64,000 nucleotides of DNA, taken from NCBI GenBank assembly GCA_018714855.1, contig DVMT01000015.1, positions 785 to 64,784 of the forward strand, read 5' to 3'. Positions within the stretch are counted from its first letter, which is position 1. Each line of letters starts with the position of its first letter. Origin of the DNA: Candidatus Aphodocola excrementigallinarum (GTDB lineage Bacteria > Bacillota_I > Bacilli_A > RF39 > UBA660). A program made the translations under genes and the position numbers. Of the stretch, positions 3,565 through 57,218 are shown in pieces. A model generated the notes under the pieces. That model did no database searches and was not told the DNA's origin. It saw nothing but the letters and a program-made list of their open reading frames with translations.

Positions 3565-4914
3565 CTAAATTGTTTTCGAATTATTTTCTTCTTTTCTTTT
3601 TTTAAAGATTTTTTTCATTTTCTCAAAGAAGCTTTCTTTTTTATATTCTTCTTTTTTACTTTCTAATTCTTCTAAAATATCTTTTTCTCTATTGTTTTCT
3701 GTTTTTTCTGAATCTACTTTTTCTTTTTTTTCTTCATTTTTATATACTTCTTCAACATAAGGCCTTAAAATTTCCCAATAATCAACATACGTTGTTTTTG
3801 AAGCTGATGTATTACTAATTTTTTCTATAAGATTTCTAATTGCTTCTTTTAATTCAGAAGAAATATCAGGATTTGATAATTGTCTTTCAAAATTATATGT
3901 GTTAGTTGGCATTTTTCCGGTTTTAAAATACTTTTGCGAGATTAAATTACATCTATCCCTTATTTCTGTTGCCTTTAACTCATTATCTACATTTTCTTTT
4001 AAATTTTCTTCTTTTTTTAAGTTATTATAAAATTCTTCAATATTTTTTTCTAATACTTCAGCTATCTGTAAATCACTAATACCATCAAGAATTACTAATT
4101 CTTCATATTTACTTATTAATTTTTCCATAATTTCTTGTGATTTAAAGGACAAAGAATTAACGTCTTTTAAGTTTTCTTTCCATAAATATGTATTAGTTGG
4201 TATTTTTCCATCTTTAAAATAAGTTTGTCCTATTTCCTTTATTTTATTTAAATTCATTACTAATTTTTCTTTTTGTTGAGCCTGTAATTTAGCAATTATA
4301 TTTGTAAAAACAGGAATTTTATTATTTATATTATTTTCCCTTTCATAAAAGAAGTGCTCCGAATCAATTGCATTAGCTCTCCTGATTTTCCCTTTTGTTA
4401 CCAATTGTAAATATTCTTCATTTCCTAATTTTGCCAAATTAAATTCAATATGTGAAGCTCTTCTTATTTCTTGAATCATAGCTTGATTCAAATCCAAACC
4501 ATTATATTTATTATTTTTATCTAAGGTTTTTAAAATTTCTTGTTCTACTTTTAAATTATTAATAATTTCAACTATATCATTATAATTATCTTCCAGACTT
4601 ACTCTTTCCGTATTTTCTTCTGTGTGGGCTTTTAATTCATGAGCAAACTCTTCTAGACATTTAATTGATATTTCAATAATTAAAGATGCTGGAATATTTA
4701 TGTCTTTAGTACTTTCACTGACTTTAAAACCATTTCTTAAAATACTATCTTTCATATCTTTAGGAAGACTTTTTAATATTTTATTAAAGTTTAAGATGGC
4801 TTCTGTTAAATATTTAAGATCCTCTTTGTCAGACCATAAAGACATTTCTCTTGATTTTCCTAAAATTGTTTTTAATTCGTCCTCTAGTTTTTTTGTTTCA
4901 ATATCCACATACAT
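3565..4914 (-). CDS. Hypothetical coiled-coil, lysine-rich protein with an internal duplicated module (YFK[DT]GK[IM]PTNTY)
   Basis: Long ORF with no recognisable catalytic motif. The two repeat copies are also visible at the DNA level (about 3901-3945 vs 4190-4235). Confidence 0.4.
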   Translation of the reverse strand: MYVDIETKKLEDELKTILGKSREMSLWSDKEDLKYLTEAILNFNKILKSLPKDMKDSILRNGFKVSESTKDINIPASLIIEISIKCLEEFAHELKAHTEENTERVSLEDNYNDIVEIINNLKVEQEILKTLDKNNKYNGLDLNQAMIQEIRRASHIEFNLAKLGNEEYLQLVTKGKIRRANAIDSEHFFYERENNINNKIPVFTNIIAKLQAQQKEKLVMNLNKIKEIGQTYFKDGKIPTNTYLWKENLKDVNSLSFKSQEIMEKLISKYEELVILDGISDLQIAEVLEKNIEEFYNNLKKEENLKENVDNELKATEIRDRCNLISQKYFKTGKMPTNTYNFERQLSNPDISSELKEAIRNLIEKISNTSASKTTYVDYWEILRPYVEEVYKNEEKKEKVDSEKTENNREKDILEELESKKEEYKKESFFEKMKKIFKKRKEENNSKTI

Positions 4915-4928
4915 AATAATACCTCCCT

Positions 4929-5207
4929 TTATTTAGATAATAAGTATTCTCCTATCATATTTTTTATCATTTCAAAATATACTAACATTGCTTCTAAATA
5001 ATCATCTTCACTTAAATTTTGATTAAATAAATCTTCTATTTCTCTGTTTTTTAGATAATGCAATTCAACGCCATCATTTTTTGCTAATTCAACGATTGTA
5101 TTACCAAGATTCATTAAGGAATCATATAATTCTTTTCGTTTTCCATTAATATCTAGTTTTTTTACTTCCTGCATATAGTTGTCAAACGCCTGATCTAATT
5201 GATTCAT
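4929..5207 (-). CDS. Hypothetical 92-aa protein
   Basis: ORF sits 15 nt upstream of the previous gene on the same strand, so it is likely co-transcribed. Confidence 0.35.
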   Translation of the reverse strand: MNQLDQAFDNYMQEVKKLDINGKRKELYDSLMNLGNTIVELAKNDGVELHYLKNREIEDLFNQNLSEDDYLEAMLVYFEMIKNMIGEYLLSK

Positions 5208-7152: not shown

Positions 7153-7242
7153 AATGGCCTCCCATACTATTTAATTATATCATGTATAAATATTTAAATT
7201 CAATCATATGTTTAATTGAATTATAAAAAAAGGAGATTTTAT

Positions 7243-7659
7243 ATGAATACAAATTATTACCCAAATCCAACCTATCCTAATATGGGTGTAAACGGTTTTC
7301 AAGCTACTGCAATGGGTGGCGTTGCATCCTCACCTAGCAGTAATACAGCAAAAGGCAATAACAACATGGAAGCGATGATGCAAGCTAATAATAACATGTT
7401 AGCACTTGAACAATCTTACATAGAAAACATTCTAAGGCTAAATAAAGGAAAATTAGCAACATTTTACTTTTCTTTTCCTGATTCAGTTGAATGGCGAGAC
7501 AAAACATTTACCGGAATAATTGAAGCAGCAGGACGTGACCATATAATTGTAAGTGATCCAAAAACTGGAAGATGGTACTTACTTCTTATGATTTATCTAA
7601 ACTATGTTGATTTTGATGAAAAAATAAATTATAGTCCAGAATATTACCCACAAAACTAA
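7243..7659 (+). CDS. gerQ: Spore coat protein GerQ
   Basis: Conserved GerQ C-terminal domain (SYIENILRLNKGKLATFYFSF...GIIEAAGRDHIIVSDPKTGRWYLLLMIYLNYVDFDE). The N-terminus is rich in Y/P/N/Q. I placed the start at the ATG after the RBS AAAGGAGA. Confidence 0.7.
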   Translation: MNTNYYPNPTYPNMGVNGFQATAMGGVASSPSSNTAKGNNNMEAMMQANNNMLALEQSYIENILRLNKGKLATFYFSFPDSVEWRDKTFTGIIEAAGRDHIIVSDPKTGRWYLLLMIYLNYVDFDEKINYSPEYYPQN

Positions 7660-7714: not shown

Positions 7715-8248
7715 ATGATTATAGTAATAATTGTCTTAATAATTGCAATAATAGCATTTTTGTATAGCATATACCATGATAAAATAAGCTTTCTTTCAGT
7801 AAAACTAAACATGATAGAAGAAAAAATAAACTCAACACTAATAAAAAGAAAAGAACTAATAAAAGATTCTGAAAAAATAATTAAAGAGGTTACTAAAACA
7901 AAAAAAGACGTATATCAAGGCTTTAAAAATATAAATGATGGTGAAAAAGACATTATAAAACTAGATAGAAAATTATTAGTGTATATAAATGAATTTTATC
8001 TTATAAAAGATAAGTATAAAGAATTAAATAAAAATGAAGATTTTCAAAAAATATCTTTTTCAATAGATGAAACAGAAGATTTACTTAATGCATATAAAGA
8101 ATATTATAATAATAATGCAACAAAATATAATAAGTTAATTAAACGATTTCCGATAACAATTATAAGTTTAATAAAAAGAAGAAAAGAAAAATTATTCTTT
8201 GATAAAAAAAACTCATCTGATGATGATTATAATGATTTTAAATATTAA
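7715..8248 (+). CDS. Hypothetical N-terminally membrane-anchored protein
   Basis: N-terminal TM helix (IIVIIVLIIAIIAFLY) followed by a charged, coiled-coil-like region. No LemA LQRR motif. Confidence 0.4.
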   Translation: MIIVIIVLIIAIIAFLYSIYHDKISFLSVKLNMIEEKINSTLIKRKELIKDSEKIIKEVTKTKKDVYQGFKNINDGEKDIIKLDRKLLVYINEFYLIKDKYKELNKNEDFQKISFSIDETEDLLNAYKEYYNNNATKYNKLIKRFPITIISLIKRRKEKLFFDKKNSSDDDYNDFKY

Positions 8249-8250
8249 AA

Positions 8251-8281
8251 GAGCAAACTAAATTGCTCTTTTTTATTTTTC
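8251..8281. terminator. Bidirectional rho-independent terminator
   Basis: AGAGCAA-actaaa-TTGCTCT hairpin flanked by A and T runs, lying between the convergent genes at 7715..8248 (+) and 8273..9877 (-). Confidence 0.6.
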
Positions 8282-9877
8282 TAAATCAGATTGCTTTAAA
8301 ATATATCTATAAATATTAGTATCACTATTTACTATGAAAACGCTTTTTTGTCCTTTATGTAACTCATAGAATATAATTGGTTTTTCAATGTTATCTCTTA
8401 CGTCTAATAACTCATTGAAACTATTAACATCAATTACATCACCAGTAATAACAGGTACTTTTTTAGCATTTACAATTACTCTGTCATATTCTCTTAATAT
8501 TCTTGATAATACGTTTTCATAATTACTCTTTTTTCTTGATGTTTTCTTTATGAATACAATTAATCTTACTAAAGATGCGATAGCGGATAAGAATATTATT
8601 ATTGATAGAATAAAGGTAGTCTTATTACTAATACTAAAATCTTGGTAAACCCTTATGTTATTACTATTATTAACATCTTCAGGATCAAGTTCTATATTTA
8701 CTAATTGCTGTGTTAAAGGAATTGTAATTTTTGTTGTATTATTTGAATTTGAATTTCTTATTACCGTTCCTTCTTTATCTTTTATTTCAAGACGTAAAGA
8801 TAAGATGAGATTGCTATCCGCGCTCAAACCATATGTACTTTTAAATTCTTTTACCAAATCGTTATATTCATCATAATTTATTTTAACGCTTCTATTTATG
8901 TTAAAACCACTTGAATTTTCATTAGCAACCATAACTGGATCTGTTAACCTATCAATCTTTGAATAAATTACTTTAGAATCATCTTCACCATCGGTTACAG
9001 ATACATACGATTCTATGTAATATGTATAAGTATAATCAAATGTGTTTGAAGCACTAAAATTATAATTAAAATCAACGTTTATATAATCAATTAGACTTGC
9101 AATATACTGCATGTTTTCACTTAAATTATCATCATTATAATAATCATTTTCTTTTAAAGTAACATCATATTTTAAGTTGCTAGATTGATTATATACCATG
9201 GTACTTCTAGCTCTTATAGTTATACTAAGTAAAAGAACGATAGATGCTAAAACAAATAAGAATATAATTGCTACTATATTTAATAAAAGTCTTTTTTCAT
9301 AACTTAAATAAAAATTATGTTTGCTTTTTTTATAAACAACGTTATTTATACTATCATTATTATTAGTATCAAAAGTGTTGCTATTATTATCTTCTTTTTT
9401 ATAATCACCTAAAGAAAACGTAACGGTATTGGTTAAATCTTCTTGGTCTTGATAATCCGTGTTCAAATTATCAAAAGACGCATTTTCTTCATAATCTATG
9501 TTTAAATTATCAAAAGATGTGTTTTCTTCATTATTTTCGTCTTGTTTAATATCTTTATTTTCAAAATCATTAGTAGGATTCATTAATGTCTCATCTTTTA
9601 AATCTTCTTTTGTTACTTTTGTAAACGGATAAAACTTTATTTCTTCTTGGTCTTTTTTAACAACTTCTTTTTTTTCTTCTTCAAGCTTTTTAGGTTCCGA
9701 AACTTTCTTAGGCTTTTTTAATTCAACTTTTTTTTCTTCGCTTTTTGGTTTTTGTTTTTTTTCTTGTTTTAGTTCTTTAACTACACTAGAATTAGTCTTA
9801 CTTGTTTTTCTTTTTTTATAATAAGAACTTTTCTTTCTTGAAGTATTCTTTTTCACTTTATCCACCTTCTTATCCAT
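8273..9877 (-). CDS. Lysine-rich bitopic membrane protein: about 190 aa N-terminal K/E/N-rich region, TM, about 230 aa extracytoplasmic domain, TM, about 110 aa C-terminal domain. Possibly a partner of the signal peptidase (DUF5305-like?).
   Basis: Overlaps the upstream SipW-like gene by 8 nt, which suggests an operon. Two hydrophobic segments (LLLNIVAIIFLFVLASIVLLLSITI and FILSIIIFLSAIASLVRLIVFI). Confidence 0.45.
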   Translation of the reverse strand: MDKKVDKVKKNTSRKKSSYYKKRKTSKTNSSVVKELKQEKKQKPKSEEKKVELKKPKKVSEPKKLEEEKKEVVKKDQEEIKFYPFTKVTKEDLKDETLMNPTNDFENKDIKQDENNEENTSFDNLNIDYEENASFDNLNTDYQDQEDLTNTVTFSLGDYKKEDNNSNTFDTNNNDSINNVVYKKSKHNFYLSYEKRLLLNIVAIIFLFVLASIVLLLSITIRARSTMVYNQSSNLKYDVTLKENDYYNDDNLSENMQYIASLIDYINVDFNYNFSASNTFDYTYTYYIESYVSVTDGEDDSKVIYSKIDRLTDPVMVANENSSGFNINRSVKINYDEYNDLVKEFKSTYGLSADSNLILSLRLEIKDKEGTVIRNSNSNNTTKITIPLTQQLVNIELDPEDVNNSNNIRVYQDFSISNKTTFILSIIIFLSAIASLVRLIVFIKKTSRKKSNYENVLSRILREYDRVIVNAKKVPVITGDVIDVNSFNELLDVRDNIEKPIIFYELHKGQKSVFIVNSDTNIYRYILKQSDLEK

Positions 9878-11012
9878 TTAATAATTCATTTAAAGCAACC
9901 GTTGGCATACCAATGTACCTTATTTTGAATTTTACTATACCTATTACTTCATCTTGCTTTACTTGCCAAGAATCGGCCGTATTATTATTATCACCTTTTG
10001 TTTTAAAATTTATTTGTCCATTATTTTTTATTATTTTATTTACTCTATGAACTATTATTTTATCATCATGATTATAAACTAATATATCACCTTTTTTTAT
10101 GTCATATATTTCAGTATCTTTTAGTTTTTTTACTATAACAACATCACCCTTATTAATCTTTGGAGTCATTGAACCAGACCCAATCGTCAAAGCGTAATAT
10201 CTAAAATAACCACTTGTTAATGTAACTATTACTAATAAAGCGAATGTTATTACAGAATAAATAATCAAATTCTTTTTTGTGTATCTTGATTCTTTTATTT
10301 TTCTTAAATCATAATAATTAAATAAATTATTTAATCTTATTACAATAATAATAGGTAAAACAGTTTCTAATATAACGTTTATATACTCTCCAAAATCAGG
10401 GAAAAGCGGTAATATATAAACGCTTAAATCAACTATTATTCTATAAAAAATACAGTTTTTATAACCTACTTTATAAGTAACATAAGTTAATAAAATATTT
10501 TTAGTAATACTAGGGAACACGACTAAGCATATCATTTTAGTAAGCCCTAAAGCCGATGTTATATCATATGTATTAAGCATTAAACAAACATCTATCAATA
10601 AGAAACCTAAATAACCAACTATAAGTCCTATCTTATTTTCCTTTGATTTACTTACCCAAATATATCTTAAAAACTCGCTTAATACTATTACTAATAATAT
10701 AGGAAAAGCATTTTTAAATATGTTTACTAATTTTAAACTATAACTACTTTTTAAAAAACCAGTAAATAATCCAAAGAAATAAGTTAAAAAATAATATATT
10801 AACAAAATAATTACTATGTTTAAAAAAACATCTTTTTTATATCTAAAATTATCCTTTTCTATACCTAGTGTTATTATTGTTGCAATTAAAAACAAAAATA
10901 ATAAACCACTAATTATATATGGGTTTGCTATTTTAAATATAAATAAATTAGCCAAAAGTAAAACAAACATGCTAATTCCTAATACATAAAGTTTAACATA
11001 TCCCCTTTTCAT
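9870..11012 (-). CDS. SipW-type (archaeal/ER-type) signal peptidase I domain fused to an N-terminal polytopic membrane domain of about 260 aa
   Basis: The C-terminus has the S26B-type motifs GSGSMTPKINKGDVV...HRV...GDNN. The N-terminus has at least 7 predicted TM helices. There is no internal start or RBS between the two halves. Confidence 0.55.
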   Translation of the reverse strand: MKRGYVKLYVLGISMFVLLLANLFIFKIANPYIISGLLFLFLIATIITLGIEKDNFRYKKDVFLNIVIILLIYYFLTYFFGLFTGFLKSSYSLKLVNIFKNAFPILLVIVLSEFLRYIWVSKSKENKIGLIVGYLGFLLIDVCLMLNTYDITSALGLTKMICLVVFPSITKNILLTYVTYKVGYKNCIFYRIIVDLSVYILPLFPDFGEYINVILETVLPIIIVIRLNNLFNYYDLRKIKESRYTKKNLIIYSVITFALLVIVTLTSGYFRYYALTIGSGSMTPKINKGDVVIVKKLKDTEIYDIKKGDILVYNHDDKIIVHRVNKIIKNNGQINFKTKGDNNNTADSWQVKQDEVIGIVKFKIRYIGMPTVALNELLNG

Positions 11013-11139
11013 AATATCACCACTTTTAATAAATTTATAAATTATAAAATAATATGGTAATAACGTATTAATCTTATACTATCCTATCGTATAAATAATA
11101 ACACAGGTTAGCAAACATAGTCAATGTTTTTAAAAAAAT

Positions 11140-11172
11140 AAAACACCAATCTTAAAAATTTATTGGTGTTTT
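11140..11172. terminator. Rho-independent terminator overlapping the ung stop codon
   Basis: Perfect 11-bp stem AAAACACCAAT / ATTGGTGTTTT. Confidence 0.55.
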
Positions 11173-11819: not shown

Positions 11820-12575
11820 TTACTTTTTTCTTGATACCTCAGCAATCGCTATATAATGATCACTTGGATTAATGCCATTATATTTTTTTGTGTCATATAA
11901 AACGTTATCCACTTTCATGGTATCTTCTGGTATAAATATGTGATCAATTGGCTGTTTTCTATCAAATTCTCTAAACGAACTTCCAAGTGTACTTAAAACT
12001 GCATCAACTAGCTTATTTTGTTTTTCAAACTTTTTTAAATCGCCCGTCAAGTGCATGTTAAAGTCTCACATTATAATAATATCTTCTTTAGAATCTTTTT
12101 CTAACCTTATTATCTTTGATAGAACTTCTAACTGAAGCTTTCTATTATATGAAAATAAATTATCTAAATGAGTGTTAATAATTAAATAGTTATGCCCTTC
12201 ATATAAAGTATGTGCAACCGTGCATATCCTAGGAAAGAAATCAAGTAAGAATCTTCCACCTTTTTTATTTATATCGTTAGATAATGAGTAAGTTTTCGTA
12301 TCTAATAAATCAAAGACTTCTTTTTTTAATAAAATACTGTTATATTCATCAGATATACTAGCACTACCTCTTGATTCTCCAACAAATATATAATCTTCCA
12401 GTCTTTTTTCTAAATAATCCTTTGTTCTTGGAGTTAACTCTTGCGTTCCTATTACGTCTAATTTTCTTTTTTGAATTAGTTCTTTAGCAGCCTCTGCTCT
12501 TCTTATCCAGTTTTTAGGACTGGCAGGAGAATATGAGTTTTTCATGTTAAAAGTTGCAACTAACAAAATAATCAC
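11820..12575 (-). pseudogene. Endonuclease/exonuclease/phosphatase (EEP) family gene interrupted by one in-frame TGA
   Basis: ORFs 12066..12575 and 11820..12056 are in the same frame, separated by TGA (12066-12068) and the codons D-F-N. Read through, the protein is ...IIIM*DFNMHLTGD..., carrying the EEP motifs N-terminal ATFN, central GDFN and C-terminal SDHY. Confidence 0.5.
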
Positions 12576-52211: not shown

Positions 52212-52247
52212 AAGAAAAAGTTTTAATAAAATTACTTTTTCTTTTTT
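52211..52247. terminator. Bidirectional terminator between the convergent agrD and agrC-like genes
   Basis: AGAAAAAGT-(12 nt)-ACTTTTTCT hairpin with flanking A and T runs. Confidence 0.5.
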
Positions 52248-53548
52248 GTTTGTCTATTTTTAGTTTTAATGGTCAGTTTAGTTACATAATATTCATCTTC
52301 AAGAGAGTTTTCTATTTCAAATATATTACTATTTTCAACAATATCTTTTACTAATCTTAATCCATATCCATGACCAGAACCTTTTGTTGTAAAACCAGTG
52401 CCTATTTTATCCATGTCAATTTTTCCTTTATATGTATTATAAATACTAAATGTAACTGAATTTGTTTTTTTAACAACATCAATTATAATCTTTTTTTCTT
52501 TACTTTTCTTACATGCATCAATAGCATTATCAAATAATACACCAAGCACCTTAGTAATATTTTTATAAGTTTCTGTTCCTAAAGTATCAAGTCTTATTTT
52601 AACACCTGATTCAACGTTTAACTCATGTTTTATATTTTCATCATCCATCGTAGATAACTTATAATAAAGTAAACCTTTTATACCACCGGCTGGAAACTTA
52701 TTTAACTGACTAATTAAATAACTACTATGAGTCTTCTTTGAATCTTTTATTACAGAATCTAAATATTCAATTAACTTAGGAGAATTCATTTGTGCATAAC
52801 CACGTATTACCATTAATTGATTCTTAAATTCATGATTAGCTTTACCTTGATCAGTTATTATCTTTTCATATTTAGTTACGTGATTTAACATGTTTTTATA
52901 CTCATCTTTAATTTTGTCATACTTAAATTCATTTCTAATTATTATCGTTATTATTAAAATAACACATGCCATAAATAAAATATTAATATAATAATTAGAT
53001 TTTAAAATTAATTCAAAGCCATTTTTTAAAGCAATTAAATAAAGAATAACAACAAAAACATACAAATAATTTATTAACTTTTTATTTTTAGTAAATAAAG
53101 TTATCTCATTTTTTACTATTTTTCTTACAAATGGTAATTTAATGAAAATTACTGCAAACAAAGAAATAAGAACATTTGCAATTAAATTATAAAAATTGTT
53201 ATTTACGATATCTACAGAATTTATACCTATAATAACTAGTCCTACCGTTATTATAAGTTCTGAAATCACAAAAATTAAACCCGTATTAAAAGCATATAAA
53301 ATTACATTTTTATCTCTTATATCTAATGTAAAATATAAATTAAGAAAAATAACTAATAAAAACACTAAAAATCTTATATTATTTGGTATAAACAAAAATC
53401 CAATAAAACAGTAAATTAACATGATAATTATAAATCTAAGTTTATCTGTTTTTTTATCCATATTTTTTTGACTAAAAATAATATATGATGTTGCAATTGC
53501 CTGAAAAATACTAGCAATAATACAAACTATTATACTTTCCATACTCAT
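52232..53548 (-). CDS. agrC: AgrC-like (HPK10/LytS-type) sensor histidine kinase
   Basis: 6-7 N-terminal TM helices, H-box ANHEFKNQL, and GHKL ATPase motifs (DNAIDA...GSGHGYGL). Confidence 0.75.
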   Translation of the reverse strand: MSMESIIVCIIASIFQAIATSYIIFSQKNMDKKTDKLRFIIIMLIYCFIGFLFIPNNIRFLVFLLVIFLNLYFTLDIRDKNVILYAFNTGLIFVISELIITVGLVIIGINSVDIVNNNFYNLIANVLISLFAVIFIKLPFVRKIVKNEITLFTKNKKLINYLYVFVVILYLIALKNGFELILKSNYYINILFMACVILIITIIIRNEFKYDKIKDEYKNMLNHVTKYEKIITDQGKANHEFKNQLMVIRGYAQMNSPKLIEYLDSVIKDSKKTHSSYLISQLNKFPAGGIKGLLYYKLSTMDDENIKHELNVESGVKIRLDTLGTETYKNITKVLGVLFDNAIDACKKSKEKKIIIDVVKKTNSVTFSIYNTYKGKIDMDKIGTGFTTKGSGHGYGLRLVKDIVENSNIFEIENSLEDEYYVTKLTIKTKNRQTKKKK

Positions 53549-54255
53549 AATAACTCCCTCAATTCTTTCTTAAAATTTCTTGATAAATAATCTGTACTAG
53601 AATCATTAATAAAATATATAATGTTATTTTTAAAATCAACGCTTTCAATTTTATCTTTGTTTACAAAGCATGCTCTATGTGTTTGAACAAATCTGGAGTC
53701 TAATTTTTTAATTACCTCACTTAAACTTTCTCTTATTGGATACTCATCATCCGTTGTTACAATCGTTGTTTTCTCTAATGCATTATCTCTATATACATAT
53801 ATAATATTATCTAATTTAACGTGATGAATTTCCTTATTGCATCTAAAACTTATTATTTTTTTATTATTTAGTTTTCCTATTACCATGTTTATGGTATCGG
53901 TTAATCTTTCTTCATAATTATCAAATTTAGATATGAAATCTAATATTAATAGTTTTTGCTTTAATAAAGTTAACTCTAGTTCTTCATGAGACGTTAGTAT
54001 TATTATAATGCTATCCCAGTCTACTTTTCTTATTTCTTTTGCAATGTCTATACCTGATTTATTTGGAAGTTCTAAATCAAGTATGTAGATATTTATATCT
54101 GATGGAGTGTTAATTAAGTTTTTTAATTTTACTGAGTATTTTTCAAAGGTATAAATATTATAGTTAAAATCATATGGCATAGCTATTTTAGATATAACTT
54201 TTTCATTTATATCTCTAACGTACTTATTGTCATCACAAATAATAAAATTAATCAT
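53545..54255 (-). CDS. agrA: LytTR-family response regulator (AgrA-like)
   Basis: Receiver domain (IIICDD...D) plus a C-terminal LytTR DNA-binding domain. Overlaps the kinase gene by 4 nt. Confidence 0.75.
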   Translation of the reverse strand: MINFIICDDNKYVRDINEKVISKIAMPYDFNYNIYTFEKYSVKLKNLINTPSDINIYILDLELPNKSGIDIAKEIRKVDWDSIIIILTSHEELELTLLKQKLLILDFISKFDNYEERLTDTINMVIGKLNNKKIISFRCNKEIHHVKLDNIIYVYRDNALEKTTIVTTDDEYPIRESLSEVIKKLDSRFVQTHRACFVNKDKIESVDFKNNIIYFINDSSTDYLSRNFKKELRELL

Positions 54256-54289: not shown

Positions 54290-54317
54290 TAAAAAAAAGA
54301 ATTCAAATGAATTCTTT
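54290..54317. terminator. Rho-independent terminator at the mbl 3' end
   Basis: AAGAATTCA / TGAATTCTT inverted repeat with a poly-A/T flank. Confidence 0.45.
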
Positions 54318-55293
54318 AAGTTAAACTATCTAATATAATTCCGGTTCCTTCAGCCACACAAGTAAGTGGACTATCAGCTATTTTAGTTGGGACTTTTAAT
54401 TCTTTTTCAATTAACTTATCCAAGCCTTCTATTAAGGCTCCGCCACCGGTTAGTACTATCCCGTTTTCTATTATATCAGCGGATATTTCTGGTTCTATTT
54501 TTTCTAGCACCATTTTTGCACCATGAATTATCATGTAAACACTGTCTTTTATAGCTTCTTTTACTTCGCTTGAAGTTATTGTAATAGTTTTTGGAAGACC
54601 ATTTATTAAATCTCTTCCCCTAACTTGCATTTTCTTTTCTTTTTCCTTTTCTAATACGGTACCTATTTTTATTTTTATTTTCTCTGCAGTTACTTCCCCA
54701 ACTAACAATTTATATTTATTTTTTATATATTTAATAATATCTACATCAAAGGTATTACCAGCAACTTTAATAGATTCACTATAAACGATTCCGTTTAAAC
54801 TTAGTACCGCAATGTCTGTTGTTCCACCACCGATATCAATAACCATATTACCACTTGGACTTGATATTTCAAGGCCTGCTCCTACGGCTGCTACTTTTGG
54901 TTCTTCTTCTACATAAACCTTTTTTGCACCTGTTCTTTCTGCTACTTCTCTTATTGCGTTTTTTTCTACTTGAGTTATGTTAGAAGGGCAGCATATAACA
55001 ATTCTTGGTCTTGAAAAAATGGTTCTTCCTTTTATCTTTTTTATAAAATAGTCAAGCATAATTTCAGTTTTATCAAAATCTGCTATAACTCCATCTTTTA
55101 AAGGCCTTATTGCGATAACACTTCCAGGCGTTCTACCTAACATATCATGAGCTTTCTTTCCTATTGCAAGTACTTTTCCACTATCTTTATCAATTGCAAC
55201 AACGCTAGGTTCACAAAGAACTATACCCTCACCCTTAACGTATATTAGTATATTGGCAGTTCCTAAATCAATTCCTATATCTTTATTTCTCAC
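54316..55293 (-). CDS. mbl: Rod-shape-determining protein MreB/Mbl paralog
   Basis: Actin-fold motifs GIDLGTAN, DIGGGTTD. It sits immediately downstream of spoIIID, as in Bacillus and Clostridium. Confidence 0.85.
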   Translation of the reverse strand: MRNKDIGIDLGTANILIYVKGEGIVLCEPSVVAIDKDSGKVLAIGKKAHDMLGRTPGSVIAIRPLKDGVIADFDKTEIMLDYFIKKIKGRTIFSRPRIVICCPSNITQVEKNAIREVAERTGAKKVYVEEEPKVAAVGAGLEISSPSGNMVIDIGGGTTDIAVLSLNGIVYSESIKVAGNTFDVDIIKYIKNKYKLLVGEVTAEKIKIKIGTVLEKEKEKKMQVRGRDLINGLPKTITITSSEVKEAIKDSVYMIIHGAKMVLEKIEPEISADIIENGIVLTGGGALIEGLDKLIEKELKVPTKIADSPLTCVAEGTGIILDSLT

Positions 55294-55295
55294 TT

Positions 55296-55553
55296 TTATC
55301 CTTTTGAGTATTTTAACTTAGTTTTTTCACCACCGTTTAAATGTTTAATTTTATAATGATAATTTAATATTTTACTTACTTCATCATATAAATTTAAATC
55401 TATGTTTTTAAGTCTTTTACTTAAATCATTGTGAACGGTTGATTTACTTACTTTAAAATACTTTGATATTTCTCTTATTGTTTTACTTGTTTTAATTATA
55501 TAATTAGCTTCTTTTAATACTCTTGCTTTAATATTATAAGGCAAGTTTTTCAT
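55296..55553 (-). CDS. spoIIID: Stage III sporulation protein D
   Basis: HTH motif SKSTVHNDLSKRL and the C-terminal HLNGGEKTKLKY, both typical of SpoIIID. Confidence 0.8.
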   Translation of the reverse strand: MKNLPYNIKARVLKEANYIIKTSKTIREISKYFKVSKSTVHNDLSKRLKNIDLNLYDEVSKILNYHYKIKHLNGGEKTKLKYSKG

Positions 55554-55590: not shown

Positions 55591-56241
55591 TTAATTATCC
55601 GTTAATTCTTTTACGGATTTATCATAATATTTTTCAGGATTGATTACCGTGCCGTTTTTATACATTTCAAAGTGTAATCCATTTTTTACGTCTTTATTTA
55701 GTTCGCATGTACCACTTTTTGCAATTACTTGTCCTTGGGTAATAGTATCTCCTTTTTTAACTGATACGTCAGATAAACACTGATATAACATAACAACTTC
55801 ACTTGAGTTTCTTATTTCTATAGTATTACCAAGTAAAGAATCTTCTTTAACATCTGTTACTGTTCCAGATAAAGATGATAAAACATCAAAGGACTCATCA
55901 GACTTATAATCAACACCAGAATTTTGCATATAAATTCCTTCGTGATAAATTATTGAATTTTGTTGCTCTTCTTCTGATGCATCTTCTTCATAAAAATTTT
56001 TATAAACACTTATGTTTTCTGCTTGATAAGGTCTTTGTATTTTTTCATCTTGATTTACTACTGGATAATAGCTGTCAAATATATAATCATTAACATAAAC
56101 ATAATCATTATCCATATTTGAAGCTTTCATTGTTTGATTAGCAGTAAGTACCCCTGCAGTTACTACAAATGCTACAAATAAGACACTAATAATCGTTACT
56201 TTTACAAATGGTTTTAACTTTCTTTTTTTCATATTTTTCAC
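55591..56241 (-). CDS. spoIIQ: SpoIIQ-like M23/LytM-domain membrane protein
   Basis: N-terminal TM, a degenerate LytM domain (...GQVIAKSG...GLHFEMYKNG), and the gene order spoIID-spoIIQ-spoIIID-mbl. Confidence 0.55.
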   Translation of the reverse strand: MKNMKKRKLKPFVKVTIISVLFVAFVVTAGVLTANQTMKASNMDNDYVYVNDYIFDSYYPVVNQDEKIQRPYQAENISVYKNFYEEDASEEEQQNSIIYHEGIYMQNSGVDYKSDESFDVLSSLSGTVTDVKEDSLLGNTIEIRNSSEVVMLYQCLSDVSVKKGDTITQGQVIAKSGTCELNKDVKNGLHFEMYKNGTVINPEKYYDKSVKELTDN

Positions 56242-56285: not shown

Positions 56286-57218
56286 TTAACTTATTTTTTT
56301 TATTTCACATTCTTGATAATAATGATTTAAAATATCTTTATAATTATATCCTTCTTTTGCCATGCCGTTGGCACCATACTGACTCATACCAACACCATGA
56401 CCATAACCATTTACATTGAAAATAACCGTATCATCTTTTACTTCTATATTAAAACTTGTTGATTTTAAACCAAATGCATTCCTTATTTTACTTGACTCAA
56501 AAGTTGTACCGTTTATAGTTATGTTTTTTACCCTTCCAGTGTTTGTTTTTTCTATGTTTTCTATATTTATGTTTGTGCTATTAGGAAGGTTTAAATTAAA
56601 TAAAAACTCATCTTTACTAACTTCTTTAGTACTTGAAAAAACAGGAGATTCTTCTTTGTCCCATTTTGATTCTACGCTTTTTAAATATGGCATACTATTT
56701 TTAAAAACGTCATCACTATTTTCAGTATAACCATTACTAGTAGAAAAAAACATGGCATCAATAATATTGTTATTATATAAAATAACTTCTCCTTTGGTAT
56801 CTGTTACTGCTTTTTTTATTTTTTTTAAATTTTCTTCATAATTATCTTGCCATTTTTCTTTCATCTGATCTTCATCAATATATACCTGGCTTGATGTTCC
56901 ATCATCCACATCATAATCGTTTTTACTATTTTGTGCTTTGTTTAAAGCATATGTTCTTGATGCGACTGCCTGCGCTTTTAATGCTTCTTCATTAAAGGAA
57001 GCAGGCATTTCGCCTGCTACTACTCCAACAACATATTTTTCAATTGGTATAGATTCTACCAAATTAGATTCATTTCTTTTTACCTTTATTACTTTATTAT
57101 TTATACTACCGTACTTTATTTTATATAATAAATTAGTTGAATTAGTTAAACCAACTATTAAAAGTGGTATTAGTATTATTATTAAAGTAAGTAAAAGAAT
57201 TTTTTTCAAATTTATCAT
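56286..57218 (-). CDS. spoIID: Stage II sporulation protein D (lytic transglycosylase)
   Basis: SpoIID motifs YVVGVVAGEMPASF..EALKAQAVASRTYA and GYGHGVGMSQYGA. Confidence 0.85.
   Translation of the reverse strand: MINLKKILLLTLIIILIPLLIVGLTNSTNLLYKIKYGSINNKVIKVKRNESNLVESIPIEKYVVGVVAGEMPASFNEEALKAQAVASRTYALNKAQNSKNDYDVDDGTSSQVYIDEDQMKEKWQDNYEENLKKIKKAVTDTKGEVILYNNNIIDAMFFSTSNGYTENSDDVFKNSMPYLKSVESKWDKEESPVFSSTKEVSKDEFLFNLNLPNSTNINIENIEKTNTGRVKNITINGTTFESSKIRNAFGLKSTSFNIEVKDDTVIFNVNGYGHGVGMSQYGANGMAKEGYNYKDILNHYYQECEIKKIS

Follow-up and report, generated by a model that had tools for sequence, protein, structure and literature searches.

The window, the whole 64-kb stretch of DNA analysed here, encodes a pair of genes on the minus strand that stands alone between a UDG gene and the LemA/GerQ genes. 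The first gene (9870..11012, with a TAA stop codon at 9870-9872) encodes a polytopic signal peptidase of 380 aa, as recognized from the ORF list, TIGR02228, its protein family and an AF2 model. The second gene (8273..9877, with a longest ORF of 534 aa) encodes a DUF5305 partner, identified from the ORF list, PF17231 and its conserved downstream position. Both ORFs are found at the coordinates originally given, on the minus strand. A consensus scan and direct reading located a promoter-like site on the minus strand upstream of the peptidase gene (11095..11124; TTGACT, 18 nt, TG-extended TATTAT), following a hairpin and T-run at the UDG gene's end (~11135-11170); the site is a pattern match of a kind no commoner in this region than in shuffles. 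Where the DUF5305 and LemA genes converge, a terminator scan and the sequence revealed a hairpin, AAAAGAGCAAACTAAATTGCTCTTTT, with A/T runs on either side (8247..8272, assigned to neither strand), which is probably a bidirectional terminator ending a two-gene operon.

Read directly from the sequence, translation of the DUF5305 gene probably starts within 9854..9869 on the minus strand, where the strong Shine-Dalgarno sequence GAAGGTGG (9862-9869) precedes a GTG codon (9854-9856) with a 5-nt spacer. Starting at GTG 9856 yields 527 aa and leaves 13 nt between the peptidase stop codon and the gene, and ATG 9877 yields 534 aa. Other gene callers chose the 527-aa product (P0121, L001/L002), the gap between the two genes is ~7-15 nt in most related loci, and the GTG start appears more likely than the ATG start. 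The 8-nt overlap of the genes noted initially holds with the first ATG (9877) only, and is replaced by the 13-nt gap with the likelier start.

The dN/dS of the pair is 0.14-0.25 in comparison with the relatives L003/L004, similar to adjacent genes. Given purifying selection, a promoter-like site of its own and a terminator hairpin, the pair still looks functional in the genus of the window. The organism also carries the sporulation genes GerQ, SpoIID, SpoIIID and a gene for an M23/SpoIIQ-like protein, and the adjacency to GerQ/LemA is not conserved outside the genus. SipW had originally been described as dedicated to TasA/camelysin-like matrix or spore-coat proteins in Bacillus and Clostridium. 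No Peptidase_M73/TasA-like gene, no TapA and no gene of the subunit family described below is encoded anywhere in the 64-kb window, and no subunit gene lies beside the pair in its closest relatives (L001-L004).

The polytopic peptidase

The 380-aa protein begins with an uncharacterised membrane domain (N-domain), continues with a TM anchor and ends in an S26B (SEC11/SipW-like) peptidase domain. The extracytoplasmic peptidase domain covers residues 268-380 (9873..10211, minus strand), as delimited by invariant columns, checked codons and SEC11 matches. TIGR02228 (sigpep_I_arch) matches the protein at 92.1 bits over residues 249-374, approximately the peptidase domain, against a curated cutoff of 51.85 bits, and Pfam S24/S26 models also score above cutoff. 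The Ser of the SM box, the His that replaces the Lys of P-type SPases and the Asp of the GDN box are all present, and S281, M282, H322, R323, G340, D341 and D347 are invariant in 116 diverse family sequences. The catalytic codons were verified on the minus strand for Ser281 (10170-10172), His322 (10047-10049), Asp341 (9990-9992) and Asp347 (9972-9974). The HR[VIL] motif with the catalytic His is kept in 117/118 full-length representatives, and all residues conserved in fibre-linked members are retained in the window peptidase. Searched against PDB sequences, the family profile retrieves SEC11C (E 7e-21) and SEC11A (E 3e-20), and bacterial P-type SPases only at E 1e-2 to 1e-3. Foldseek with the peptidase domain matches 7P2P_A (E 6e-6). 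By sequence class, the catalytic subunit belongs with the signal peptidases of the ER/archaeal type (S26B, Ser-His), for which cleavage is predicted. The original prediction of such a domain at the C-terminus is borne out, with the quoted motifs found at invariant family positions. The protein is not a SipW in the strict sense, as the domain can be aligned to most of the equivalog model for SipW (NCBIfam NF046067) yet scores 82.3 bits, below the cutoff of 190 bits.

AF2 helices, conservation and positive-inside analysis define an N-domain of eight helices at residues 1-245 (10278..11012, minus strand), with the helices modelled at residues 2-26, 31-49, 59-84, 95-122, 127-144, 154-182, 185-200 and 209-236. 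A ninth TM helix follows at residues 246-267 (KKNLIIYSVITFALLVIVTLTS; 10212..10277, minus strand) and likely acts as the signal-anchor of the peptidase, based on the AF2 helix and on TIGR02228 and SEC11 alignments starting at ~residue 247-258. The whole 380-aa chain is modelled by AF2 with a pLDDT of 94.9 and a pTM of 0.86. Across the family, mean K+R counts are 2.9-3.8 in predicted cytoplasmic loops, 1.2 in the short L6-7 loop and 0.03-1.1 in outside loops, and the K/R-rich loop before the anchor helix has a mean of 3.8. Because of this positive-inside distribution, the predicted topology is N-in/C-out with nine TM segments, a cytoplasmic N-terminus and the active site outside. The first ~245 aa are indeed polytopic, much as initially proposed, and the count of at least seven helices is refined by the AF2 model to eight plus the anchor.

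The fusion is ancestral, as judged from its spread among homologous sequences. A search with only the N-domain retrieved 698 cluster representatives at the 50% identity level, nearly all of 370-390 aa, and the same architecture, with 370-395 aa, is shown by 115 of the top 150 representatives and by hundreds of independent assemblies. That two genes were united by an assembly or frameshift error can be discounted with near certainty because the architecture is standard for ~700 protein clusters. Only the odd architecture could speak for such an error, besides one Patescibacteria MAG (L065) in which the gene is split in two. The independent assemblies refute an artefact, the AF2 model of the entire chain is a single, confident fold, and the initial view of a real fusion rather than two genes stands. 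It is also very unlikely that the N-domain is an independent enzyme or transporter, such as an intramembrane protease (CPBP, rhomboid or exosortase-like), a lipid/glycan flippase or an acyltransferase, which was joined to the peptidase so that the two are co-regulated. Such a function would fit a domain that is large, highly conserved and confidently folded, with E113, R116, N172, P202, P205, Y210 and P220 nearly invariant and E113/R116/N172 forming a polar cluster within helices 4 and 6, and an exosortase or CPBP had been suggested originally. However, residues 1-245 include no His, Cys, Ser or Asp conserved across the family, and the domain is almost exclusively peptidase-fused. The N-domain has no Pfam/NCBIfam match in the window protein or any of 116 relatives, no relative among PDB sequences or by Foldseek, and no internal repeat as seen in some transporters. 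Identities as CPBP, rhomboid or exosortase/archaeosortase gain no backing, as both family HMM matches and the expected conserved catalytic residues (Glu/His motifs, Ser-His or Cys-Arg-His) are missing.

The DUF5305 partner

The suggestion that the neighbouring protein may be DUF5305-like is confirmed by PF17231, which matches residues 191-534 at 64.9 bits (E 9.3e-18; gathering threshold 29 bits). A full-length Pfam scan misses the domain because the N-terminus is of low complexity, and the match appears once this K/E-rich region is removed. Homologues of the partner carry precomputed PF17231 annotations and span only ~65% of the query. Composition and orthologue comparison identify residues 1-192 (9302..9877, minus strand) as a lineage-specific, low-complexity cytoplasmic extension, and most DUF5305 orthologues have only 4-60 aa ahead of the first TM helix. 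The extension (K 21%, E 11%, N 12%) is K-rich in its first 85 aa and acidic and N-rich in the remainder, where an imperfect 13-aa tandem repeat occurs (EENTSFDNLNIDY / EENASFDNLNTDY).

The remaining parts, all on the minus strand, were delimited with an AF2 model (m78c1fe1f8ecb) of a construct of residues 185-534, which has a pLDDT of 86.2. They comprise TM helix 1 (residues 193-218, 9224..9301; construct helix 9-34), an extracytoplasmic beta-sandwich (residues 219-418, 8624..9223; construct strands 40-227), TM helix 2 (residues 419-446, 8540..8623; construct helix 235-262) and a cytoplasmic alpha/beta C-terminal domain (residues 447-534, 8276..8539; also supported by columns of alignment A4). 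Both TM helices were confirmed against the sequence. The C-terminal domain contains the best-conserved motifs of the DUF5305 family, EYDR.I and F.ELLD..D...PII, which are nearly invariant in alignment A4. With a 192-aa N-terminus, a TM helix, a ~200-aa beta-sandwich, a second TM helix and an 88-aa C-terminal domain, the layout comes near the original estimate, with somewhat shorter extracytoplasmic and C-terminal domains. The beta-sandwich retrieved only generic Foldseek matches from the PDB (TMEM106B luminal domain, Af_0446, TRAP subunits), and neither SPCS3 nor any other SPC subunit was among them. The modelled architecture agrees with the published description of DUF5305 as a TM helix, an extracellular beta-sandwich, a second TM helix and a cytoplasmic alpha/beta domain (bioRxiv 10.64898/2026.01.04.697558).

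Related loci and known systems

The set of related loci covers 63 genome loci from gut Bacilli-type MAGs, some Clostridia and Saccharibacteria. In this survey of neighbourhood conservation, the DUF5305 gene lies directly downstream of the peptidase gene and on the same strand in 61/63 loci, and the two genes are duplicated together in several genomes. Between one and four secreted proteins of ~200 aa adjoin the module in 56/63 loci, mostly directly upstream, and large paralogues with the same N-terminal module are encoded downstream of DUF5305. These subunits share a cleavage/donor-strand motif, [FY]-A|x-[LFYW]-S-x-T-L-x-I, which, like their signal peptide, matches that of archaeal AbpX, a fibre protein of the TasA superfamily (aligned precursor ...GLTYA|QWSETLSL). 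The fuller signal comprises an n-region MEKERK, an h-region and [GAS]-[FY]-A|[AS]-[LFY]-S-x-T-L-x-I-x-G. Against PDB sequences, the top two matches of the subunit profile are both AbpX and marginal (9SJ2, E 0.007; 9RHP, E 0.055), and every match of the subunits to Pfam/NCBIfam camelysin/TasA and SipW-dependent models lies below threshold. In the subunits, the fourth position of the mature strand as predicted is occupied by Q/T/R/S, and AbpX has an acidic residue at this position (bioRxiv 10.64898/2026.01.04.697558). Given that no acidic residue is found there, Ca-dependent assembly may not apply to these subunits.

DUF5305 (TafG) has been proposed as a helper or accessory subunit of SPase I (PMC11821415, PMC12337348, bioRxiv 10.64898/2026.01.04.697558). 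When the gene of the SPase TafD is deleted, the fibre subunit TafA is no longer processed; fusions of DUF5305/TafG with the SPase occur in some cases, and AbpX loci are accompanied by a ten-TM SPase I (PMC11821415; PMC12337348; bioRxiv 10.64898/2026.01.04.697558). Examples of SPase/DUF5305 at AbpX loci include P. abyssi WP_338249487.1 and C. amylolyticum A0A1M6GRN4/A0A1M6GRS4 (bioRxiv 10.64898/2026.01.04.697558). The window locus similarly pairs a DUF5305 protein with an SPase I of the TIGR02228 type that bears many additional TM helices, and the related loci also share AbpX-like subunits, the cleavage/donor-strand motif and larger minor or tip proteins with AbpX loci. Unlike AbpX loci, the window locus lacks genes for a subunit, tip or anchor protein, and the hosts recovered here, gut Bacilli-type MAGs and Saccharibacteria, are absent from the loci listed in the preprint. 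The window peptidase has nine rather than ten TM helices, and the likeness to the AbpX-associated SPase I is one of description.

A dedicated S26-type peptidase with a DUF5305 protein for TasA-superfamily donor-strand-exchange subunits is likewise found in the TafD/TafG system of haloarchaeal Tat-fimbriae (PMC11821415, PMC12337348). TafD though has four TM helices, an N-terminal peptidase domain and a second extracellular domain, whereas the window protein has nine TM helices and a C-terminal peptidase domain. The substrates of TafD are Tat-dependent, whereas the signals in the related loci look Sec-type. SipW of B. subtilis, encoded in the tapA-sipW-tasA operon, is also a bacterial ER-type Ser-His peptidase for matrix-fibre proteins, but it is a small two-TM protein that is not known to have the 8-helix N-domain or a DUF5305 partner. 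Among solved structures, SEC11 of the eukaryotic SPC (SEC11A/C and SPCS1-3; 7P2P/7P2Q) comes closest to the catalytic domain. By analogy, both systems may place an S26B subunit amid extra TM helices with a trans-side beta-sandwich accessory domain, although the extra helices are fused to the catalytic subunit in the window protein. The second-best structural match of the peptidase domain is the S. pyogenes SipA/LepA pilus-associated peptidase homologue (4N31), another S26-fold protein of fibre (pilus) biogenesis. SipA is not known to have the catalytic residues and is a chaperone-like factor for sortase pili, whereas the window protein keeps Ser, His and Asp.

Substrates and role of the module

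We suggest that the two-gene operon is probably a dedicated membrane signal-peptidase module whose usual substrates are AbpX/TasA-like fibre subunits, encoded elsewhere in the case of the window. The module appears to sit in a fibre operon in almost every related genome. The peptidase presumably cuts the neighbouring subunits, putative members of the AbpX/TasA superfamily, most likely by taking off their conserved, unusual signal peptide. The larger tip or anchor proteins would be cut likewise, and cleavage would expose an N-terminal donor strand for fibre polymerization. DUF5305 would be a non-catalytic partner of the peptidase, and both DUF5305 and the N-domain may serve as recognition or scaffold elements rather than enzymes. 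An accessory-subunit role of DUF5305 is most likely, based on gene linkage and the literature. In the genus of the window, the module has seemingly been separated from the fibre genes, and a substrate presumably exists elsewhere in the genome.

A different reading is that the module was retargeted after loss of the fibre genes in the genus of the window, acting on other exported proteins such as sporulation or spore-surface proteins of this spore-former, or as a general S26B peptidase. This is unlikely, even though the different context (UDG-pair-LemA-GerQ), the missing subunit gene in the window and L001-L004, purifying selection on the pair and the sporulation genes of the organism could all be accommodated. 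The original description of B. subtilis TasA as spore-associated also favours it. However, the window represents ~64 kb of the genome and subunit genes may lie elsewhere, the GerQ/LemA adjacency is not kept outside the genus, and every residue conserved in fibre-linked members is retained. Highly improbable is the original proposal that DUF5305 itself is the cognate substrate, cut after TM helix 1 so that the extracytoplasmic domain is set free or activated. Strict gene linkage and a TM helix 1 in signal-anchor orientation followed by an extracytoplasmic domain would fit such a role. By eye, however, no evident small-x-small motif follows TM helix 1 in the window (...LLLSITIRARSTMVYNQ) or in the A4 consensus, and a resident membrane subunit would be expected to have just such a second TM helix and conserved domain on the cytoplasmic side. 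SPase-DUF5305 fusions and duplicated pairs have also been reported (PMC11821415; bioRxiv 10.64898/2026.01.04.697558). An accessory partner is much more likely than a substrate because the related loci carry obvious AbpX-like substrates of ~200 aa with a highly conserved (-3,-1) cleavage site.

Beyond a dedicated module for fibre subunits, the N-domain and DUF5305 might make the S26B peptidase a prokaryotic multi-component complex, here uncoupled from the fibre genes, a speculative extension that we consider rather unlikely. Such a complex would read the MEKERK n-region and the [FY]-A|A-[LFY]-S signal, and cleavage could perhaps be coupled to donor-strand polymerization at the membrane. The spore-forming gut Bacilli genus would then use the complex on a different set of substrates.

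Fibres of the TasA superfamily built by donor-strand exchange, which include TasA, archaeal bundling pili, Tafi and AbpX, are an emerging major class of biofilm matrix proteins. The module bears on the processing of these fibres and on their assembly at the membrane. Polytopic S26B peptidases form a large unnamed family of ~700 clusters (50% identity), almost always paired with DUF5305 and abundant in reduced-genome gut Bacilli-type MAGs as well as present in Saccharibacteria. For annotation, low-complexity extensions can mask DUF5305 and a distinct 9-TM subclass is concealed under signal peptidase I labels. The pair in the window is a further member of a recently recognized module type, unusual in standing apart from subunit genes. 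Defining the N-domain would supply a missing component of the model for prokaryotic dedicated signal peptidase complexes and would bear on the proposed analogy with the eukaryotic SPC. The related loci suggest that gut Bacilli-type MAGs and Saccharibacteria build AbpX-like surface fibres.

Peptidase domain and N-terminal fusion

The 380-aa product of the gene at 9870-11012 on the minus strand carries a C-terminal peptidase domain, which the original prediction described as S26B and SipW-like. With TIGR02228 (archaeal/ER-type signal peptidase I), residues ~249-374 score 92.1 bits, above the cutoff of 51.85. When 116 diverse members of the family are combined in a profile, human SEC11C and SEC11A are recovered at E ~1e-20 and bacterial P-type signal peptidases only at 1e-2 to 1e-3. 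In the PDB, Foldseek ranks SEC11A from the human signal peptidase complex first for the peptidase model and S. pyogenes SipA, which is pilus-associated, second. The S26B assignment thus holds, but not SipW in the strict sense, as the curated SipW equivalog scores 82 bits against a cutoff of 190. Residues S281, M282, H322, R323, G340, D341 and D347 are invariant in the family. Together with the SEC11-type matches, the invariant S281/H322/D341/D347 set points to an intact Ser-His S26B enzyme.

The N-domain (residues 1-245) is without a match in Pfam, NCBIfam or PDB sequences. An exhaustive search with the N-domain only (E <= 1e-3) retrieved 698 representative clusters, nearly all 370-390 aa in length, and the HR[VIL] motif with the catalytic His is kept in 117 of 118 full-length representatives. 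By this shared length and retained motif the fusion is ancestral in a large family, and the artefactual joining of two genes, considered as a refutation of the original prediction, is not borne out. Departures from this architecture are rare. At 9842-10989 of L065, a related locus in a Patescibacteria MAG, the gene is split into an N-domain ORF and a peptidase ORF. The homologous protein P0285, an 812-aa outlier, was considered as a peptidase-DUF5305 fusion and ruled out, since it consists of the N-domain, a shortened peptidase and an unrelated C-terminal region; it is probably a chimera. Both the split and the join are probably frameshift or assembly artefacts.

The AlphaFold2 model of the peptidase (116-sequence alignment; pLDDT 94.9, pTM 0.86) shows a beta-rich peptidase domain preceded by an anchor helix (246-267) and, at residues 2-236, by eight further helices. 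Mean Lys+Arg counts across the family are 2.9-3.8 in predicted cytoplasmic loops (1.2 in the short L6-7 loop) and 0.03-1.1 in outside loops, a distribution that supports a predicted topology of nine TM helices, N-in/C-out, with the active site outside. Exosortase and CPBP had been suggested as possible identities of the N-domain. These, as well as rhomboid, were rejected given the lack of family matches in the HMM searches and of catalytic residues. No His, Cys, Ser or Asp of the N-domain is conserved across the family; the only conserved polar positions are E113 (99%), R116 (99%) and N172 (90%), and the others are Gly, Pro or Tyr. Foldseek comparison of the N-domain with solved structures gave no match, and hhalign of its two halves found no internal repeat (probability 0.7%, equal to the negative control). 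This makes a second catalytic activity unlikely, and we infer a structural or recognition role.

The DUF5305 partner and operon structure

The adjacent gene (8273-9877, minus strand) encodes 534 aa as the longest ORF. The 8-nt overlap with the peptidase ORF stands if translation starts at the first ATG and disappears with a GTG at 9856, located 5 nt after the Shine-Dalgarno GAAGGTGG, which yields a 527-aa product and a 13-nt intergenic gap. The GTG is the choice of independent gene callers, and the spacing is similar in most related loci. Under either start, the two genes form one operon. The upstream border consists of a hairpin located where the uracil-DNA glycosylase (UDG) gene ends and a promoter-like site (11124-11095, minus strand). 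Downstream, a hairpin at 8247-8272 is common to the DUF5305 gene and the convergent LemA gene. Except for one JGI 'signal peptidase I', no database names are on record for the proteins.

The neighbour had been thought possibly DUF5305-like, and PF17231 (DUF5305) is indeed matched by residues 191-534 alone (64.9 bits, cutoff 29, E 9e-18). A Pfam scan of the full-length protein gave no match, presumably through bias correction from the low-complexity K/E/N-rich N-terminus. The homologue P0126 loses its PF17231 match in the same way, and precomputed PF17231 annotations are present on many partner homologues. The masking of DUF5305 by a low-complexity N-terminus is a practical annotation pitfall. 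This N-terminus of 192 aa, K-rich and then acidic/N-rich, is a lineage-specific extension, with only 4-60 residues preceding TM1 in most orthologues. In the AF2 model of residues 185-534 (pLDDT 86.2), TM helices at 193-218 and 419-446 flank a beta-sandwich of ~200 aa, and an alpha/beta domain of 88 aa follows; the published DUF5305 architecture is the same (bioRxiv 10.64898/2026.01.04.697558). Matches of the beta-sandwich in the PDB are marginal and generic only (TMEM106B luminal domain, Af_0446, TRAP subunits). A likeness to the eukaryotic signal peptidase complex has been suggested, but neither SPCS3 nor any other chain of that complex is among the 50 PDB matches listed.

AbpX-like subunits at related loci

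Sources of the 63 loci recovered in the genome survey are MAGs of uncultured gut Bacilli, 'Tenericutes' and Erysipelotrichaceae type, Clostridium sp. CAG:594, some Clostridia and, at 26-34% identity, Saccharibacteria/Patescibacteria. The gene neighbourhood is conserved, with DUF5305 immediately 3' of the peptidase gene on the same strand in 61 of the 63 loci, and several genomes have two such pairs. One to four proteins of ~190-220 aa adjoin the module in 56/63 loci, mostly directly upstream. These subunits share an n-region MEKERK.K and a hydrophobic core, followed by [GAS]25-[FY]26-A27(95%)-[AS]28-[LFY]29-[ST]30-x-T-L33(93%)-x-I35(95%)-x-G. The motif is a signal peptidase I site of the classic (-3,-1) type with a beta-strand after it. 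Among 177,635 PDB sequences, the best two matches of the subunit profile (E 0.007 and 0.055) are both AbpX, a TasA-superfamily fibre protein of Pyrodictium abyssi (bioRxiv 10.64898/2026.01.04.697558). The alignment starts at the AbpX donor strand, and mature residue 1 of AbpX aligns with the subunit residue immediately after A27. The AbpX precursor reads ...AIGLTYA before this boundary and QWSETLSLSATIS after it, and the related-locus subunits ...GLTVAFA and ALSQTLTINGTA. Sub-threshold matches to SipW-dependent families and, for 11/43 subunit members, to camelysin/TasA agree with this.

Many loci also encode, downstream of DUF5305, a 460-2000-aa protein with the same N-terminal module. In this position, large proteins of 460-2175 aa starting with the subunit-type signal/donor-strand module are found at L008, L012, L014-L020, L027, L028, L033, L038, L046, L048 and L064. 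Their C-terminal domains vary, including an ALK/LTK glycine-rich domain and a head-fibre-like domain at L019 and an FGE-sulfatase-like domain at L017. These proteins are probably tip, adhesin or anchor subunits. In six loci from Candidatus Saccharibacteria/Patescibacteria MAGs (L043, L044, L051, L059, L060 and L065), the operon likewise combines the polytopic peptidase and DUF5305 with AbpX-like subunits, and it is at times present twice, which suggests production of TasA-superfamily fibres by these epibionts; such loci are not among the AbpX loci given in bioRxiv 10.64898/2026.01.04.697558.

Related arrangements are known from fibre systems. Haloarchaeal Tafi loci encode DUF5305 (TafG) alongside a dedicated peptidase, TafD, which is required for processing of the TafA subunit (PMC11821415, PMC12337348). 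AbpX loci encode a 'ten-TM' SPase I and a DUF5305 'SPI-accessory' protein (bioRxiv 10.64898/2026.01.04.697558), and fusions of SPase I and DUF5305 occur at times (PMC11821415; bioRxiv 10.64898/2026.01.04.697558). A search for AbpX-encoding loci in metagenomes found no relatives. The window module is most likely a member of this recently recognised AbpX/Tafi-type SPase-DUF5305 kind, with the N-domain set beside the 'ten-TM' SPase I by description. DUF5305 had been proposed as substrate or partner of the peptidase. It is best seen as a partner, and AbpX-like fibre subunits would be the natural substrates of the peptidase family.

Genomic context and search for substrates in the window

The window organism is AT-rich (~28% GC), of gut Bacilli type and probably a spore-former, judging from minus-strand genes for SpoIID (56286-57218), an M23/SpoIIQ-like protein (55591-56241), SpoIIID (55296-55553) and an MreB/Mbl-like protein (54316-55293) and a plus-strand gene for the spore coat protein GerQ (7216-7659). 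The minus-strand genes at 52232-54255 encode an Agr/Com-like two-component pair, a polytopic GHKL histidine kinase (438 aa, HATPase_c_5) and a LytTR response regulator (236 aa). At 3565-5207 (minus strand), a K/E-rich protein of 449 aa, coiled-coil-like by eye, and a 92-aa protein are encoded between FemAB and Dus, both without a Pfam match. Their absence from the syntenic regions of the same-genus loci L003 and L004 makes them look like a lineage-specific insertion. An endonuclease/exonuclease/phosphatase-family gene at 11820-12575 (minus strand) apparently consists of two ORFs of 169 aa, with a sub-threshold Exo_endo_phos N-terminal match, and 78 aa. The near-identical contig L001 has the same split (166 + 78 aa); the gene may be a pseudogene or truly consist of two parts.

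The gene order UDG-pair-LemA-GerQ is shared by the window and its same-genus relatives L001-L004, none of which has a subunit gene beside the pair. All of L005-L017, the closest lineages outside the genus examined for synteny, have one directly upstream. HMMs of the complete set of 121 cluster members and of 43 small subunits, together with strict and loose motif searches, detected no subunit-family member or matching signal motif anywhere in the 64 kb. The sole weak HMM match, to the M23/SpoIIQ-like sporulation protein (E 0.01), and one antisense chance match were discarded as substrates. The pair is under purifying selection: against L003/L004, dN/dS is 0.14-0.16 in the peptidase and 0.18-0.25 in DUF5305, values similar to those of the neighbours LemA and FemAB, although dS is near saturation. 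The window peptidase also keeps all conserved residues. Given such constraint on a pair without an adjoining subunit gene, the genes for its substrates most likely lie in other parts of the genome; alternatively, the module acts on different substrates in this genus.
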